A stretch of DNA of 64,000 bases from Escherichia phage vB_EcoM_G2540-3, in sequence record MK327944.1. One strand, written 5' to 3'. Below, piece after piece: positions 10,943-49,803 of the stretch. The position numbers and the translations under genes were made by a program. Within the stretch, counting starts at the first letter, position 1, and every line of letters starts with the position of its first letter. The notes below the pieces were generated by a model. The model did not search any database. It had not been told where the DNA came from and worked only from the letters and a program-made list of their open reading frames with translations.

Positions 10943-12361
10943 TTATGGATAGGTATAAATGATACCAGTTTCTAAAGCAGTTTTATGAATGATGTATCCA
11001 TTGCGCGATTCTTGAACATCAACTTCTGGATAGTCTTTCATCATCTTCTGAAGAGTGTAACGATGCAGGTAGTATTTACTATCTGGATCTTCAGTTTTCC
11101 AATCTTTACCTTCTTCAGTCATTTTTTGGATTTCATCCATAACCCACCAACCGCACCAGATATAAGCTGAGCTACGATGTGGAAGAGGATGAACATAAGG
11201 TAATTCACCTTCTGGTTCCGGAGCAACTTTATCAGTCACTTGAACTTGACCTGTGGCTTTAACTGTTTTACTATCATAGTCAGTTGCTGTAACGACAGCA
11301 GTAACTTCAATAGTTTGACTTCCAATAGATGAGGTATCAACAGTATATACGTTAGTTGACCCTTCCACAGGAGAAGAATCTTTCTTCCATGAGTAAGTAA
11401 TTTGTGCTGCTTCAGGTGCGCCATTAACATTAGCAGTAAATGTAGCCGAAGCATCTTGCTGAACATTAATAGAAGGAGGAGTCAATGTAACCTGTGGATT
11501 CATTGTCTTCTTATTAACTGTCAATGATACTTCATTGGAAGTAACTTCCTTTTCATTATAATTTTCTGCAGTTACTTGGGCTACGCATTTAATTCTTTTT
11601 ACTCCACTTGTAGTTGGAGTATAGTTAAATGTAGAGTTAGTTTCTCCACCAACTTGTGAATCATCTACATACCACTGATACGTAGCAGACGCTCCGTCAG
11701 GTTGAGAAGCTAATGCAGCAGTAAATTGAACCGGGGTTCCAATTACTCCAGCAGCAGGACTAGCAGGAGTTACTGCCAAGGTAGTTGTCTGTGTCTTTTT
11801 ATTAACTGTCAATGATACTTCATTGGAAGTAACGCTCAGTGCATCATAATCTGTCGCAGTTACTTGAGCTACACACTTAATTTTTTTAACTCCGCTTGTA
11901 GTAGGAGTATAATTGAATGTAGCAGAAGTTGCTTCGCTCACAGGAGAACCGTCAACGTACCATTGATACGTAGCAGATGCGCCCGATGGCTGTGAAGCTA
12001 AGGCAGCAGTAAATTCAACGGCTGTTCCGATTACTCCTTCTGGAGGACTATTAGGAGTTACAGCTAAAGTAGTTGTCTGTGTTTTATTTTGAACTGTAAT
12101 AGTTGTACTAATTTCAGCTGTTTCAGCTTCAGAATCAGGAATAGTATTTGTTGCAACTACCTTAATAGTCTTTTGACCAGCAGGTCCTTTTAATACATAA
12201 TCAAAAGTTGCTGCTGATCCTTCTTGGGGAGCATTATCTACGCTCCAAGCATAGGTAATAGTTCCACCTCCAGTTTCACCACTGGGTGTAGCAGTAAACT
12301 GCTTGGTTTCATCAATAACCCCTGTTGGTGTTTTAGGAGTTATATCAACTGTAAAAGCCAT
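10943..12361 (-). CDS. hoc: highly immunogenic outer capsid protein Hoc with an extra Ig-like module
   Basis: 472 aa; N-terminus MAFTVDITPKTPTGVIDETKQFTATPSG... and C-terminal capsid-binding region PEPEGELPYVHPLPHRSSAYIWCGWWVMDEIQK as in T4 Hoc; internal 96-aa module duplicated. Confidence 0.9.
   Translation of the reverse strand: MAFTVDITPKTPTGVIDETKQFTATPSGETGGGTITYAWSVDNAPQEGSAATFDYVLKGPAGQKTIKVVATNTIPDSEAETAEISTTITVQNKTQTTTLAVTPNSPPEGVIGTAVEFTAALASQPSGASATYQWYVDGSPVSEATSATFNYTPTTSGVKKIKCVAQVTATDYDALSVTSNEVSLTVNKKTQTTTLAVTPASPAAGVIGTPVQFTAALASQPDGASATYQWYVDDSQVGGETNSTFNYTPTTSGVKRIKCVAQVTAENYNEKEVTSNEVSLTVNKKTMNPQVTLTPPSINVQQDASATFTANVNGAPEAAQITYSWKKDSSPVEGSTNVYTVDTSSIGSQTIEVTAVVTATDYDSKTVKATGQVQVTDKVAPEPEGELPYVHPLPHRSSAYIWCGWWVMDEIQKMTEEGKDWKTEDPDSKYYLHRYTLQKMMKDYPEVDVQESRNGYIIHKTALETGIIYTYP
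11505..12080 (-). repeat. in-frame tandem duplication (2 x 288 bp) of an Ig-like module inside hoc
   Basis: Units 11505-11792 and 11793-12080 both begin gtctt(c/t)ttattaactgtcaatgatacttcattggaagtaac; protein copies KTQTTTLAVTP...SNEVSLTVNKK. Confidence 0.75.
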
Positions 12362-24571: not shown

Positions 24572-24862
24572 TTATTTACGGAATGAAATGAAAGCAGCAA
24601 CTGAAGCAACTAAACTGTCTTCAATATAAACTTCAATTTTTACCGGAGCTTCTGACTCAAATTTACCTGTTACTACACCCTGAAAAATACTTTCAGTCTG
24701 TTCTGGCTTTGAAAAATTTTCAGAAGGAAAAATTCCAAACTTTTTATCTGTTCCGAAAATTTTGATAAATTCATCATAAACTGCTTCATTAAAAGCATTA
24801 TCAGCAGGAATAACGCCTTCAACTACAAGTTCTTGACCTAAAAAGCGTAAAGAAGATTTCAT
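24572..24862 (-). CDS. hypothetical protein (alt.-3-like)
   Basis: 96-aa ORF with GAGGA Shine-Dalgarno and the 54-bp early promoter cassette directly upstream. Confidence 0.6.
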   Translation of the reverse strand: MKSSLRFLGQELVVEGVIPADNAFNEAVYDEFIKIFGTDKKFGIFPSENFSKPEQTESIFQGVVTGKFESEAPVKIEVYIEDSLVASVAAFISFRK

Positions 24863-24869
24863 TTTGTGT

Positions 24870-24923
24870 TCCTCATGTTATGTCAGTAAGACTACTATAA
24901 CACAACACGAGGGACTTGTAAAC
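24870..24923 (-). promoter_or_regulatory. early promoter and leader cassette, copy A
   Basis: - strand: GTTTACAAGTCCCTCGTGTTGTGTTATAGTAGTCTTACTGACATAACATGAGGA (TTTACA -35, TATAGT -10, GAGGA SD); identical to 38159-38212. Confidence 0.55.
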
Positions 24924-25280
24924 TACATTTTGAACTTTTTAGTACGCGTAATAGGCATGCGTCGATTTTATACTGTTTCATTGTTTGAAGAGCAGTATCA
25001 AAAACAGCATTAATGACACCAATTGGATTTCCACCCAAGTTTTTAAGCTTAACTAATGATAGTTTCTCATTAACACCTATCATTACGATATGCATCATTT
25101 TATCGCCCGGCTTAACGTTTTATTCGTATCACCGCCAGAGGTGTATGTACAAAATCTAAATCCAGGAAGCACGCTTTCTTCGCCGGCTTGAATAGCAAAA
25201 ATTTGTGGTATTTTATGCTTAGGATTTAAGTTAACAACCGGCGCCGAAGCGCCGTCAAATAATTCTGTAATAAGTTCCAT
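24895..25280 (-). pseudogene. partial paralog of the alt 5' region (~ first 125 codons) split over two frames
   Basis: MELITELFDGASAPVVNLNPKHKIPQIF...FCTYTSGGDTN and MMHIV...QYKIDACLLRVLKS parallel alt residues 1-130; 1-nt difference versus alt at gataaaatgatg shifts the frame. Confidence 0.5.
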
Positions 25281-25283
25281 GAT

Positions 25284-27393
25284 TTATCCTTGAACGAACT
25301 TGTAAGGCATGTTTGCAATATCTATGCAAGACGCAATAATTCCAAGAGATGATTCTACTTTCTGTTTAACATTTGATGAAACAAATGATGCAAAGTCAAC
25401 TCTATCTTCTATATCACCTGTCATTGTAACCAATTCACCAGTTTCCATTAAACGGTCACCGTCATAGATTACCGATTCGGTGAGTTCTTCTGTGGTCATA
25501 ACTTCAGCTTGAATAAGCTTGTTGTTAGTTCTAACTGTTCCATCGTTGTAAGATGCATCGGTTATTTTATTAACTTTGACCATTAATCCACGTGGCAAAA
25601 TGACTTCCATTTCATTTGAAGGCGCTAAACTTCCACCGGGTAAAACAACATTGACCTTATCAGCCCCAGTAATAACCCGCTAAACTTCCACCGGGTAAAA
25701 CAACATTGACCTTATCAGCCCCAGTAATAACCCATCCAATTCCAACTAAATTATCGCTAGAATTTACTAGTCCTTCATCAGTTTTATCAATAGAAACACT
25801 TAGACGCTTTTCGTCTGGTAAAACACCTATAGATGAATCAGTCATCCAAGTACCAAAAATATTTGGATATAATGATGTTGACACAAAGTTTCTAAAATAA
25901 AAAACTCGATTTTTTACCATTGCTTCATATATTGAAGGTAACATTCGTTGTGAACGATACAAAGTAATACCTTTTGGTAATCGTTCACCATTTTTAAAGG
26001 CTGAATCTAAATTATCAATGGCTTGTTCTATTTCAGGTGCTGTTAAAATACTTGTACGCTCATCTGGATTATATAATCCCAAAAGAGCATTATTTATGTC
26101 TACATATCCTGAACCTACATATTCACGAATTCCGCGTTTTTGCGCTGGTGTGTATTTAGATGAATCTTTATTTTCGACTATAGGATGTAATGACCATCCA
26201 GCGGTAAGAGCATATCCACGTAATTCTCTTCGAATAATCTTTGTTTTTATTGCATTCCAAGAATTTTGCACTAACTCATTATTCGCAGCGTCTTGATTTA
26301 AATGCGAATGTCTGTTAATATTTCTTTCAAACCAGGCACCTTTATATTTTTCTAAAGTATCATCGACGATAGAAGCAATAGTTTCTAAAGTTTTTATTGA
26401 AGTAATAGATTCTTTTCGTAATTTTTCTAAAGCTTTATTTTTTATTTCTGCATTAATAATGGATTCTTTATCTTCAGGAATTATAGAAGCTTCTCTGAAT
26501 GCCATCCCAGCTGTAACACTGCTAAGAGCATTCTCTAGTGCAAATCCTGAAGTAGAAATTACCGTTAATTCATTAGAATCAGAAATTAAAGGCGCGTCCG
26601 CTGGTTTATTTAATTCTGCCGCTGAAGCCTCAAATTTTTGAAACATCGGTGTTTCAAATCTAGAAGATTCCAATGACTGACTTTGTGCAATTGCTCTACG
26701 GGAAATTTTAACTTTAACGATTACAGCTTGGTCAGAACGTTTATCATTTTCTTGTGCAATAGATGCTGCAATTGCCTCATTTTTAGTTACTTGAGCTCCA
26801 GTATCTTTATTGATATAAACATCACCGACCTTCGATTCAACTTTAGTAAAGAGCTCGGTACTAATTTCCGGAACCCCTGGAATGTCTTCTAGTGATACAT
26901 TTTTGCGATGTATAAGAATATATGCATACTTTTTATCATAATCCCAGAGTTCCTTAAGAAGGACGTATCTGCCACCTGAACGACTACGGATAAGTCTATC
27001 AGCAATAACTTGAATTTGTCGAGCTTGGCCAGCAGTTTTAGACTTAAGAATACGAAGCATACAAGCATCAATTTTATACTGACGCATTGTTTGCATTGCA
27101 ACAGTAAAAACCGAATTGATATAATTAATTGGGCTTGGACCAAGACCTTTCAATTTAGCAATTGAACCTTTAGCGGTTAATGTAAAAGGAACAATATGCA
27201 TCATTTTATCGCCCATCTTTAAATCACGATTAGTATCACCTCCAGATGTATAGGTACATAAACGAAAGCCTGGTTGTTCAATTGCGTCATCAACATGAAC
27301 TGAAAAAATTTGCGGTATTTTCTTCTTTGGATTTAAGTTTGTAATCGGAAGAGTAGTATCTTCGTCAAATAATTCTGTAATTAGTTCCATCAT
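25284..27393 (-). pseudogene. alt: alt (capsid-packaged ADP-ribosyltransferase), frame broken by a 55-bp tandem duplication
   Basis: 577-aa ORF 25660-27393 with R...STS motif, then 108-aa ORF 25284-25610 in another frame; deleting one repeat copy restores a 684-aa frame. Confidence 0.8.
25624..25733 (-). repeat. perfect 55-bp direct tandem duplication inside alt
   Basis: gctaaacttccaccgggtaaaacaacattgaccttatcagccccagtaataaccc at 25624-25678 and again at 25679-25733, 100 percent identical. Confidence 0.95.
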
Positions 27394-27442: not shown

Positions 27443-27631
27443 TTAGTAATCTAGTGGTAAGAGAGTACGATATATTTCAAACTTTGGTCCTTTTTCATAG
27501 GCATCAAATGTTTCTGTGAATTTATTATAAGCGTATGCATCTACAAATTCGAGAATGACTTGTGATACAGAAGTAGAAACATCTCCACCTTCTTTTTGAG
27601 CAATGACAATTGTTTCTAAGTAAGCTTTCAT
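27443..27631 (-). CDS. hypothetical protein
   Basis: 62-aa ORF; ATGA overlap with gene 30 stop. Confidence 0.5.
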   Translation of the reverse strand: MKAYLETIVIAQKEGGDVSTSVSQVILEFVDAYAYNKFTETFDAYEKGPKFEIYRTLLPLDY

Positions 27632-29091
27632 AGACCAGTTACCTCATGAAAATCACCAAATACATCTTCGAACGTATTAGCTTTAGTTTTATCTTCGCGT
27701 AAACGAATCGCAATCGGAAGAAATAATTTAACGTAATCAGTGCGGCCATCAGATTTTAACCAACCGTTGCATTCGCACTCTAGAATTTTTCCAATATAAT
27801 AATTTTGGTTTTCCATAATGCGAGTACGGTCAAGTTCATGCGATTTTACACCGGCTTTATCTTTTAAGCCTGAACCAGCATTTACCTTAATTTTTCCACA
27901 CTCTGACTCAAGAATAAATCCACCTGCTTTAGTAGGGTCTTTACGGTGAGGATAAATTCCTACAATTTTTAAATCAACATCAATTACTTCTTTAAATTTA
28001 TAGAGATTTTTTGAACGAGCATTTTCCCATAATCCATCGATATTTTTGAGAATAATACCTTCAAGACCTTGGTCAATATACTTTTTATAAATTACCTTAG
28101 CTTCATCTAGGTTATTTACTACCTGGTTTTCAATTAAAATTACTTTATCATAGCCTGATGTCATTTGTTCTAGTTTAGAAAAACGTACATCATATTTCAA
28201 ACGAAATGCAGGAAGACCGTATATTTCTACCAACGGAACATAATCCCAGACCTGAAACTTCATGCATTGAGCTTCTTTTTCAGAAATGGTTCCCTTTAAA
28301 GATTTATTGGCGATGCCATTAGATGCAGTACGTGATTCAGCTACTTCTGTGAAGTCTTTAACTTTACTGTTTTCAGGATGAGCATCAAAAAGAAAATCTA
28401 GGCCTTCTGGCTCCTTTTTAACTTGCTCATGGTATACCAATTCGCCATCAATTAACACGCCTTCTGGATGAATCTGGCGGGCTTCAGCGGTCATTTTGAT
28501 TAATTCTTCCTTAAGAAGATCTAATCCTAGATATTCATTACCGGCTCGTGATAAAAGACGAACATCATCTAATTCATCACCTCTGACTTCGGCAAAGCAC
28601 CGAGCCCCATCAGCTTTTAACTGGGCAAAGGCTGGAAATTTGATATTCTTATTAATGCCTTTTTCATCATAAGAACTTGCAAGCATTTGAGGTTGTTCAG
28701 GAATTAAACCTGGCCAAACTTTGTTTGCAATAGATACTGAAGCACCACATTCAAGGTCTCGCATCATCACTCGACGCAAAACTTCAACATCATCTTTTTT
28801 ACCATCGGTGATATATCCAGATAATTCCTCAATTGCCGCATTTCCGGTCAATTTCCGAGTAGCTAACGTGAATTCAATGAAGTCAAGCATATCGGTAAGA
28901 GTCAACATTCCAAAACTCTGGGTAGCAATACCAGGTTTAGGCCATTTCTTAATATAATACTGCAACCCACGAGAATAAGTCAGACGATATACTCGTTTAA
29001 GCAATTCATTATCTTTATTCTTTTCAAGAATTGCTTGCTTCTGCTTAGTTGAACCAATAGATGCTATTTCGTTCAGAATTTTAAGAATCAT
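27628..29091 (-). CDS. 30: ATP-dependent DNA ligase gp30
   Basis: 487 aa; MILKILNEIASIGSTKQKQAILEKNKDNELLKRVYRLTY... with active-site KADGAR. Confidence 0.95.
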   Translation of the reverse strand: MILKILNEIASIGSTKQKQAILEKNKDNELLKRVYRLTYSRGLQYYIKKWPKPGIATQSFGMLTLTDMLDFIEFTLATRKLTGNAAIEELSGYITDGKKDDVEVLRRVMMRDLECGASVSIANKVWPGLIPEQPQMLASSYDEKGINKNIKFPAFAQLKADGARCFAEVRGDELDDVRLLSRAGNEYLGLDLLKEELIKMTAEARQIHPEGVLIDGELVYHEQVKKEPEGLDFLFDAHPENSKVKDFTEVAESRTASNGIANKSLKGTISEKEAQCMKFQVWDYVPLVEIYGLPAFRLKYDVRFSKLEQMTSGYDKVILIENQVVNNLDEAKVIYKKYIDQGLEGIILKNIDGLWENARSKNLYKFKEVIDVDLKIVGIYPHRKDPTKAGGFILESECGKIKVNAGSGLKDKAGVKSHELDRTRIMENQNYYIGKILECECNGWLKSDGRTDYVKLFLPIAIRLREDKTKANTFEDVFGDFHEVTGL

Positions 29092-31805: not shown

Positions 31806-32138
31806 TTATTTTACTACTTTCCAATGCTGCATGTCAAGTTTACCAACTTTTTTCATCTTCTCAATTAAGCGTTCGGCACGTTGGCGAGCTGTAACATAAT
31901 ACCATTCACCTAATTCATTTTGTTCAATTTTTCCAACGATTACTGTATTCAATTCATAAATCCAACCAGTAAAGAAATTATGAACTTGAATTGTAAAGGT
32001 GAAATCTGTTCCCATACCTTCTGTTGTTTCTACTTCAATAATATCACCTTCAACTGCCATTAAAAACCACATAGTTTCATCATATTTACCATTGAAGCAT
32101 TTAGTTTTAACCGCAGCGTTCAGATTAATCGTTTTCAT
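31806..32138 (-). CDS. hypothetical protein
   Basis: 110-aa ORF. Confidence 0.5.
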   Translation of the reverse strand: MKTINLNAAVKTKCFNGKYDETMWFLMAVEGDIIEVETTEGMGTDFTFTIQVHNFFTGWIYELNTVIVGKIEQNELGEWYYVTARQRAERLIEKMKKVGKLDMQHWKVVK

Positions 32139-32248
32139 TTTATTCTCCTTTGTTTGTGTAAGATAATACTATCACAAAGGAACCATACTGTAAACAACTT
32201 TGTGCAATCTTTGGAAAATAAAAAAGGACTCCCGAAGGAGTCCTTAAC

Positions 32249-33066: not shown

Positions 33067-33402
33067 TCACTTATAAAGACATGGAATAGCTTTATAGTGG
33101 CAAGTGACGAATTTTTGTTTAATTTCTTTTGGCTGCTTAAGACCCAGAGCTACAAAAGGATGCGGAACGTTTCGAATTTGACCAACTGGAAGAGAAGTCA
33201 AATCACCAACTTCACAAAAACCTTCAGGAACATCATGACCGACAGAGTGAATTACACACAGTTCAGGAACTTCACCTTGAACACGTTTACCGATAATAAG
33301 TCCTGATTCTGTAACTTCTTCATCACCGGCTTGTGCAGGTTCAGAAACTAAAATAACATATTCACCTACAGCACGAATTGGTAGCTGTTGTACTTCAGAC
33401 AT
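33067..33402 (-). CDS. 31: gp31 co-chaperonin (GroES-like, capsid folding)
   Basis: 111 aa; [40 protein letters not shown]... Confidence 0.95.
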
Positions 33403-37307: not shown

Positions 37308-37657
37308 TTAGAAAGGTCCTGGATGTCTTCTGCGAACTTGTTGAAGGAGTTGTTGATTTGTTTTTCAACCAATCCTGGCTTATGAGCCACCACATCCGCC
37401 TTCTTTGCGTCTTTGCGCAGTTTTTCATTTTCACGCTCAATAGCAGCAATTGCCTCACGATTTTTATTATTCATCGCATCAATATAATTATACTGAATTC
37501 GCAAATTATTTAATGCTAAAGCGTTTTCATTGGCCGTTTTTGTAATTTCTACAACAGACGTTTCTAATCTTTCAATTTTATTTTTTAAAATTAAAGAAGT
37601 TCCGCCCAATGCAATTACAATTAATAACAAGCCTGCTGTCGTATTACTTAATTGCAT
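37304..37657 (-). CDS. inner-membrane spanin (i-spanin, pseT.3-like)
   Basis: 117 aa; N-terminal TMD LLLIVIALGGTSLIL then coiled-coil-like region; overlaps o-spanin start. Confidence 0.7.
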   Translation of the reverse strand: MQLSNTTAGLLLIVIALGGTSLILKNKIERLETSVVEITKTANENALALNNLRIQYNYIDAMNNKNREAIAAIERENEKLRKDAKKADVVAHKPGLVEKQINNSFNKFAEDIQDLSK

Positions 37658-38154
37658 AAAGTTTTAATAACCTCTATAATATCGTCTTGAGAAAGACCGT
37701 TAATTAAAATATGATGTTCAGCCGGAGATTTAGAAATTTTAAAGCATGCCTCAACATCTTCTGCCATATCCGATGCGCTACGATTTGGATTACTAATCCC
37801 AAGGCGGTGTTTTCCCGTCAAAGGATTAACGATGATATAGCATTTACAACTATTGATATGAACATTAGGCTGAGTCTGATTAATGAACACTTCACAATCA
37901 TACTTAGCGAGTTGATTTTCTAAAAAGACTTTCATCTCTTCAACCGCATCAGGAAGCATATCACGGGCTTGCTCAAGACGACGATTTCGATATTCTTTAA
38001 TGGTCGTTTTCCGCTTGACTTGCTTAGCTAAATCTTTCTTAAGATCGGTGATATATCCAACTCGACGATTTCCTTTGAATACAGAAATCCCATCTGTAGT
38101 ATCACCGTATGCTTCAACGACCATTTCAGTAGTAATAAGTTGTAAATCCATCAT
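37648..38154 (-). CDS. alc: Alc, inhibitor of host transcription on C-containing DNA
   Basis: 167-168 aa (two adjacent ATG); MMDLQLITTEMVVEAYGD...; promoter cassette copy B directly upstream. Confidence 0.85.
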   Translation of the reverse strand: MMDLQLITTEMVVEAYGDTTDGISVFKGNRRVGYITDLKKDLAKQVKRKTTIKEYRNRRLEQARDMLPDAVEEMKVFLENQLAKYDCEVFINQTQPNVHINSCKCYIIVNPLTGKHRLGISNPNRSASDMAEDVEACFKISKSPAEHHILINGLSQDDIIEVIKTLCN

Positions 38155-38158
38155 AAAG

Positions 38159-38212
38159 TCCTCATGTTATGTCAGTAAGACTACTATAACACAACACGAG
38201 GGACTTGTAAAC
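38159..38212 (-). promoter_or_regulatory. early promoter and leader cassette, copy B (upstream of alc)
   Basis: 54 bp identical to 24870-24923; -35 TTTACA, 17-nt spacer, -10 TATAGT, GAGGA SD 4 nt before ATG. Confidence 0.55.
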
Positions 38213-38215
38213 AGC

Positions 38216-39803
<1,588 letters not shown>

Positions 39804-49422: not shown

Positions 49423-49803
49423 CTACTTTTTGAAAGTTTTTCGCAAAAGTTCAATGATTTCATCTACATTGTTTTCGTCAACAATGCAGTGAATTTTTGT
49501 TACGCCAGAAATCTTGTCTTCGACTTCATCTTCTTCAGAAGTCGGTTCTTTATACTCACGAAAACAATGAAATTCGTCTTCACAAATTTCTAAAAGTCTA
49601 TCTTTGAGGTAAAAATGTTTTCCATTTGCGCATTCAATGTGTTTTACTGCTTTATATCCATTAGCGACGGAAACTTCTTTAACTTCAAACCATCCGCCAT
49701 TATCTCGAATAGCTTTAACTATTGATGAATTAGAACGTGGGCTATAATTAATAAATGTATCAATAAGTCTTGGAACAAGTTCATACTTTCTACCAGTATA
49801 CAT
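49423..49803 (-). CDS. hypothetical protein
   Basis: 126-aa ORF. Confidence 0.5.
   Translation of the reverse strand: MYTGRKYELVPRLIDTFINYSPRSNSSIVKAIRDNGGWFEVKEVSVANGYKAVKHIECANGKHFYLKDRLLEICEDEFHCFREYKEPTSEEDEVEDKISGVTKIHCIVDENNVDEIIELLRKTFKK

Follow-up and report, generated by a model that had tools for sequence, protein, structure and literature searches.

A 54-bp early promoter repeat upstream of alc and alt.-3 in T4-like phages with a predicted hairpin covering its own Shine-Dalgarno sequence

Introduction

Two genes of Escherichia phage vB_EcoM_G2540-3, alc and alt.-3, are preceded by the same 54 bp in the window analysed here, a stretch of 64,000 nt from sequence record MK327944.1. 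The repeat spans promoter, leader and ribosome-binding site, which raises the question of what kind of element it is and how it came to stand at both loci. In T4, alc and alt.-3 are early genes with respect to both RNA and protein (PMC9697503, supplement), alt is a late gene, the RnlA protein is late and rnlA RNA is classed as early (PMC9697503). Our analysis suggests, with a probability that we put at roughly 0.6, that the 54-mer is one regulatory module, a strong early sigma-70 promoter in which the spacer can pair with the leader and Shine-Dalgarno sequence that follow it.

Results

The 54-mer TCCTCATGTTATGTCAGTAAGACTACTATAACACAACACGAGGGACTTGTAAAC matched the plus strand of the window exactly at 24870-24923 (copy A) and at 38159-38212 (copy B), in direct orientation and with a start-to-start distance of 13,289 bp. 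A preliminary description of this DNA had claimed two identical 54-mers in the same orientation, 13.3 kb apart, and exact comparison agreed at both pairs of coordinates. A search for near matches within the window, allowing up to 3 mismatches, gave no third copy. The 54-mer was matched in 0 of 100 dinucleotide shuffles, the chance expectation being none, so that chance similarity of the two copies was rejected. Since the flanks of copies A and B are unrelated on both sides, the repeat has sharp ends and homology stops at its edges.

The window belongs to a Tequatrovirus and is ~98% identical to T4 around both copies. With a 69-nt query, nearly all Tequatrovirus records (about 500) gave two hit positions each, and the presence of both copies in about 500 genomes also led us to reject an assembly artefact as the source of the repeat. 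Both copies are present in T4T, where copy B is identical to that of the window and copy A differs at one base. Because some 500 Tequatrovirus genomes and T4 carry both copies, the pair is a fixed feature of the genus, reference phage included, and not peculiar to this genome; nor is the repeat new, as it is already contained in the T4 reference sequence.

All genes around the two copies lie on the minus strand. Copy B (38159..38212) fills the gap between rnlA, whose stop codon ends at 38216, and alc (37648..38154), which encodes an inhibitor of host transcription and for which copy B provides early promoter, leader and Shine-Dalgarno sequence. Copy A (24870..24923) is the corresponding module before alt.-3 (24572..24862; 96 aa; named as in the T4 literature, PMC11618068), the gene that it drives. 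Its first bases overlap the end of the alt.-2 remnant, a pseudogene at 24895-25098 whose stop codon is the TAG of the copy A TATAGT.

Read on the minus strand, the module consists of GTTTACA, AGTCCCTCGTGTTGTGT, TATAGT, AGTCTTACTGACATAACAT and GAGGA. In both copies TTTACA, a 17-nt spacer, TATAGT and the TG of an extended -10 form a typical T4 early promoter. The -35 GTTTAC of copy B is located at 38207..38212 (TTTACA at 38211-38206) and its TATAGT, preceded by TGn, at 38183..38188; consensus placement puts the predicted transcription start near 38176, at the A of CTTAC. In copy A the -35 GTTTAC lies at 24918-24923, the TATAGT at 24894..24899 and the start predicted by the same rule near 24887. 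The GAGGA is followed after 7 nt by the ATG of alt.-3 (24862), and at alc by two ATGs, the first at 4 nt (38154) and the second at 7 nt (38151); the T4T annotation of alc is one codon shorter than the window ORF. Upstream of the -35, where an A/T-rich UP element would lie, copy A is A-rich (actaaaaagttcaaaatgta), while the corresponding sequence of copy B (cccagaaggatactaagct) is rnlA coding sequence and not clearly A/T-rich. The annotation of AF158101 used here lists no promoter features. The promoter scan and the gene context thus agree with the earlier claim of TTTACA, a 17-nt spacer, TATAGT, GAGGA and a downstream ATG at both sites, and the early-type -35, spacer and extended -10 of both copies match T4 early promoters; the 'about 25 nt of leader' given before is about right when counted from the predicted start to the ATG.

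The whole module is at the same time an imperfect inverted repeat, which the preliminary description had overlooked. In RNA of the minus strand, CCUCGUGUUGUGUU is predicted to pair with GACAUAACAUGAGG through 14 pairs, three of them G-U, with a 4-bp apical stem in addition, and in copy B the stem is lengthened by AAGUC pairing with GACUU. Minimum free energies of the hairpin were -27.7 kcal/mol for copy B and -23.3 kcal/mol for copy A, corresponding to z-scores of -3.9 and -4.0, and 0/200 shuffled sequences were equally stable. The 5' arm of copy A (CCUCGUGUUGUGUU) maps to 24899..24912 and its 3' arm (GACAUAACAUGAGG) to 24871..24884, the latter taking in the GAGG of the Shine-Dalgarno GAGGA (24870-24874). 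In copy B the 5' arm, the anti-Shine-Dalgarno sequence AAGUCC-C-UCGUGUUGUGUU, is the promoter spacer (38188..38206), and the 3' arm GACAUAACAUGAGGACUU (38156..38173), which includes the Shine-Dalgarno GAGGA at 38159-38163, extends 3 nt past the repeat. The spacer just 3' of the -35 is therefore the part that pairs with leader and Shine-Dalgarno sequence, and the -10 and the predicted start are situated near the tip, in copy B with the TATAGT in the apical part of the hairpin. The predicted +1, ~7 nt past the -10, coincides with the beginning of the 3' arm, and the 3' arm is the leader, ending in the Shine-Dalgarno sequence.

For RNAs that included the -35 or 100-250 nt of upstream sequence, the predicted probability of an unpaired Shine-Dalgarno sequence was 0.00, and for copy B RNA beginning at the predicted start it was 0.49. 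The leader alone did not form a stable structure in either copy, with -1.8 kcal/mol for copy B and -4.5 kcal/mol for copy A, the latter value reflecting a weak local pairing of the Shine-Dalgarno sequence that remains in the leader-only RNA. Searches of Rfam at gathering score gave no match anywhere in the window, nor did a search of 38100-38280 at E <= 1, so a known RNA family was rejected as the identity of the hairpin. An intrinsic terminator was rejected as well: the terminator scan detected no G+C-rich stem with U-run at either copy, and the stem is followed by no U-run in copy A and only by CUUUAU in copy B.

Conservation of the hairpin was assessed at rnlA-alc junctions taken from 11 phages of other genera. 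The design was found at this junction in Tequatro-, Gapriver-, Dhaka-, Karam-, Kanagawa-, Winkler- and Gelderlandvirus and in Klebsiella phage Lion_ER11. Gaprivervirus was represented by a Gaprivervirus-like IMG/VR contig (L008), and four further loci (L009-L012) were Dhakavirus-like as judged by their alc leaders. In the seven non-Tequatrovirus lineages with the hairpin the rnlA-alc gap measures 58-65 nt, and the layout is common to all: GTTTACA, an anti-Shine-Dalgarno arm immediately after it, an apical -10, and a 3' arm that ends on GGAG or GAGG. The arms themselves vary by genus (UCUCCAUUUGGUU/AACCAAAUGGAGA, UCCUCAUCAG/CUGAUGAGGA, AUCCCAUUUUGUU/AACAAAAUGGGGAU).

A covariance model built from four rnlA-alc sequences recovered both window copies with 25-26 bits and E values of about 0.002-0.003. 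A plain MAFFT alignment of the alc leaders placed the 3' arms out of register, and the covariance-model alignment was used instead. With one sequence per genus (n=8), 93% of its paired cells were canonical and 9/17 pairs showed both-sided changes, including 4/5 of the Shine-Dalgarno/anti-Shine-Dalgarno pairs; these pair counts are inflated, as the structural alignment is fitted to the model's own structure. Among 2000 column shuffles, none matched the paired percentage and one matched the count of both-sided pairs, and shifting the 3' partners by 1-3 columns gave 33-49% canonical cells (11 sequences).

The arrangement is absent from the rnlA-alc junctions of RB69, an Acinetobacter phage and an Aeromonas phage. 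As RB69 does without it, the alc hairpin is dispensable in at least one genus. The alc promoter of RB69 (L019 342-410; L026 342-403) has a short spacer hairpin and resembles the alt.-3 promoter of the same phage, the two having ATCAACAACAyGAGGA in common. In Yersinia phage P8 (L017 about 130-160) the first alc-like ORF likewise has its Shine-Dalgarno sequence covered by a small hairpin, GGUUCCAUCA/UGAUGAGGACC; this hairpin is located downstream of a terminator-like GC-rich stem and contains no internal promoter.

At alt.-3, the alc-type hairpin was confined to Tequatrovirus among the genera examined. At the alt.-3 promoters of RB69, Marfa, Melville, KaAlpha and Dhaka-like contigs the hairpin is short and confined to the spacer, e.g. 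CCACAaggaUGUGG, and the Shine-Dalgarno sequence is free; no alc-type hairpin was seen at alt.-3 in Kosakonia 305, where the predicted fold is ambiguous. Between the base after GTTTACA and the ATG, the two promoters are 89% identical in Tequatrovirus versus 47-84% in the other genera compared. Since the other genera examined lack an alc-type hairpin at alt.-3, the simplest reading is that copy A is derived from alc: the module would be ancestral at rnlA-alc, where eight genera have it, and a copy of it would have overwritten the original alt.-3 promoter in the Tequatrovirus ancestor. From the sequence comparison we infer this direction and a mechanism, which may have been ectopic recombination or gene conversion bounded by GTTTACA and CATGAGGA, both of which were already common to the two promoters.

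The earlier proposal of 'gene conversion or a portable expression cassette' fits the genus comparison at alt.-3, but the complete identity on which it was based does not hold in every genome. IMG/VR yielded 9 loci for a mid-interval protein, too few to compare the two copies genome by genome on a large scale. In the five genomes in which both copies were compared (the window, L013, T4, L014 and SV76), the copies are identical in the window and L013, while T4 shows one difference between them, L014 four and SV76 five, copy A being more variable than copy B. Substitutions in the main stem within the genus preserve pairing, as they convert C-G to U-G or G-U to A-U or fall on one of three redundant Cs, and one change in the apical stem breaks a pair yet turns TATAGT into TATAAT. 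These events, few in number and all transitions, are weakly suggestive of purifying selection on the fold.

The identity of the copies could instead be due to continuing gene conversion, and not to one old replacement followed by purifying selection. We regard this as possible, if rather doubtful. The identical copies in the window and L013 and the single difference in T4 would be expected from it, and exchange is also indicated by the identical 29-nt leaders of the L008 promoters and by the resemblance of the RB69 alc promoter to that of its alt.-3; the 4 differences in L014 and 5 in SV76, among only five genomes compared, speak against it. In L008 (2490-2549 and 19059-19119) it is the leader CCTTACACAAACATGAGGAGAACATTATG that the alc and alt.-3 promoters have in common, their spacers being different, which has the appearance of a further, incomplete exchange between the alc and alt.-3 loci. 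Together with the alt.-3-type alc promoter of RB69, this suggests that the alc and alt.-3 promoter loci have probably exchanged sequence repeatedly. The Mosigviruses ST0 and phiEC1 (L004 2483-2543; L005 2500-2561) have a sequence closely related to the copy A leader, TATAGTAGTCCTACTGAAACATGAGGAACACAAAATG, before a small hypothetical gene that in ST0 belongs to the denB-ndd region (phiEC1 is unannotated).

The two copies had further been regarded as a substrate for homologous recombination that would delete or invert the alt-to-alc block. Because the repeats are direct, inversion is ruled out, and crossing-over would lead to a 13.3-kb deletion (or circle) and a duplication. Such a deletion is possible, but it would take with it genes 30 (27628-29091) and 31 (33067-33402), which lie in the interval together with rIII, cd, pseT and alt. 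Since T4 cannot do without genes 30 and 31, the deletion products would not be viable. According to PMC2839356, which cites Singer et al. (1982), 54 bp is close to the minimum homology for T4 recombination.

A third module of the same design and of unrelated sequence, found by model R1, is located on the minus strand at 32138..32195, upstream of gene 30.8. It consists of GTTTACA, a spacer with the anti-Shine-Dalgarno sequence UUCCUUUGU, the -10 TAGTAT and the leader ACAAAGGAG, and UUCCUUUGU pairs with ACAAAGGAG. The predicted probability of an unpaired Shine-Dalgarno sequence was 0.04 in read-through RNA versus 0.65 in RNA from the predicted start.

Discussion

From consensus placement and modelled folds we infer a start site and a translational block that would operate as follows. 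RNA polymerase would start ~7 nt past the -10, close to the hairpin tip, and produce an mRNA with the 3' arm only, on which the ribosome-binding site would be open because the 5' arm is missing. Transcripts from upstream, running from rnlA into alc or from alt, alt.-1 and alt.-2 into alt.-3, would hold both arms, and in such read-through RNA a hairpin of 14-19 bp would enclose GAGGA and leave the downstream gene poorly translated. Synthesis of Alc and Alt.-3 would thereby be tied to the short period of early promoter activity and uncoupled from later read-through. This rationale of late read-through is weaker at alc than at alt.-3, because T4 rnlA RNA is early. A wider reading, which we hold tentatively and with slightly less than even confidence, is that of a Tevenvirinae 'promoter-in-hairpin' module, conserved and at times mobile, that allows translation only from RNA of its own early promoter, being present at alc in at least eight genera, copied to alt.-3, and independent in origin at 30.8.

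The module has much in common with the promoter-early stem-loops (PeSLs) of T4-like phages (Arbiol et al. 2010, PMC2839356; Comeau et al. 2014, PMC4122927). Both are short and intergenic, unite early sigma-70-type promoter, stem-loop, Shine-Dalgarno sequence and start codon, and are repeated in the genome. The module fits the T4/PST consensus TTTACW-N17-TAYWAT, and PeSLs have been implicated in swapping or deleting neighbouring DNA, with which the apparent replacement of the Tequatrovirus alt.-3 promoter and the signs of exchange in L008 and RB69 may be compared. However, the described PeSLs have their stem-loop directly 5' of the promoter, where it is interpreted as a terminator, whereas the stem of the module encloses -10 and start, pairs the spacer with the Shine-Dalgarno sequence and has no terminator-like site; moreover, there are only two copies of the module, 13.3 kb apart, which flank essential genes and are not in a hyperplastic region.

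The hairpin might accordingly be the terminating, attenuating or RNA-end-stabilising half of a PeSL-type cassette, with the burial of the Shine-Dalgarno sequence incidental. PeSLs have been described as just such cassettes, and their stem-loops terminate in reporter tests (PMC2839356; PMC4122927). Also in its favour, three early promoter candidates on the minus strand of the window, with the -35 at 49423, 35215 and 31803, each have an inverted repeat of 9-12 bp that is centred on the -10/start region with the Shine-Dalgarno sequence outside; these inverted repeats may be PeSL-like stems. We nevertheless consider a terminator-type function of the alc and alt.-3 hairpins unlikely, because a U-run is missing (none in copy A, only CUUUAU in copy B, and an empty terminator scan) and because the Shine-Dalgarno sequence is always the paired partner: in all eight genera the 3' arm ends on it and the pairs co-vary, neither of which a terminator needs.

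It is much less probable still that the inverted repeat acts in DNA, whether by forming a cruciform, by binding a protein or as a hotspot of recombination, although Arbiol et al. speculate that PeSL stems are targets of a DNA-binding recombination protein (PMC2839356). Owing to the three G-U pairs, the hairpin of the sense RNA (-24.4 kcal/mol) is 9 kcal/mol more stable than that of the antisense RNA (-15.4 kcal/mol), a modelled asymmetry that points to selection on RNA, and the changes within the genus are interconversions of G-U, A-U and G-C pairs. Convergence of two strong promoters of the same class on their consensus, for which the unusually long consensus regions of T4 early promoters (PMC2988021) might be invoked, is refuted by the match of 54/54 positions including spacer and leader, by the sharp homology boundaries and by the lack of any match in shuffled sequence, the other early promoter candidates in the window having only hexamers and short motifs in common with the 54-mer.

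The regulatory module that we favour, with a spacer complementary to its own leader and Shine-Dalgarno sequence, has a known counterpart in the T4 genes e, soc, 49 and I-TevI, in which a hairpin silences translation on long transcripts and an internal promoter gives rise to a translatable mRNA (PMC3014915). The likeness lies in a Shine-Dalgarno sequence within a predicted helix of the long RNA, supported here by covariation over eight genera; the predicted geometry, with an apical -10 and a predicted +1 at the start of the 3' arm, would fit an mRNA that lacks the 5' arm. In contrast, the internal promoter of e, soc, 49 and I-TevI is late (TATAAATA) and translation is delayed, whereas the -35 and -10 of the alc/alt.-3 module are of the early type and translation would be limited to the early period. 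Conserved promoter-containing elements that flank the internal-protein genes of T-even phages were reported by Repoila et al. (1994, cited in PMC2839356). In the description that PMC2839356 gives of them, on which this comparison is based, they resemble the module as T4 early-promoter repeats with AT-rich stem-loops and a part in gene replacement between related phages, and differ from it in their loci.

PeSL cassettes have been published as a concept, and so have hairpins over a ribosome-binding site. The conserved hairpin appears to be undescribed: neither the alc hairpin nor the identity of the alc and alt.-3 modules turned up in the searchable literature, the scope of which did not extend to the main T4 genome review (PMC150520). 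If the hairpin works in the way suggested, it would explain why promoter, leader and ribosome-binding site are frozen jointly, and would give T4 a simple means of restricting the synthesis of Alc, with its role in host shutoff, and of Alt.-3 to the initial minutes after infection, even though read-through from upstream genes goes on. It would also imply that a promoter spacer can be under selection at the level of RNA, and the design at 30.8, alc and alt.-3 would correspond, for the early phase, to the switches known from the late expression of e, soc, 49 and I-TevI. The replacement at alt.-3 would be a clean natural case in which one promoter module has supplanted another at a distance of 13 kb. 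For T4 engineering near alc or alt.-3, e.g. in connection with escape from CmdTAC defence, 54 identical bases shared by the two loci have to be taken into account, and insertions upstream may silence translation.

Additional observations

Inside alt, an exact 55-bp tandem duplication (window 25623-25732) shifts the frame and leaves a 577-aa ORF (25660-27393) and a 108-aa ORF (25284-25610). It was present in 0/211 matching phage records, the best hits spanning 226 nt of the 281-nt query. Either this isolate has genuinely acquired an inactivating mutation, or the duplication is an error of sequencing or assembly. The neighbouring alt.-1 and alt.-2 (window 24895-25280) are frame-shifted remnants of a second alt copy that is intact in many Tequatroviruses, and the repeats D9, D12 and D15 are due to this paralogy of alt with alt.-1/alt.-2. 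In SV76 the TAG that closes the second alt copy is joined directly to the copy A -35. Elsewhere in the window, positions 11504-12079 comprise two tandem units of 288 nt that are 79% identical and probably encode a repeated protein domain.
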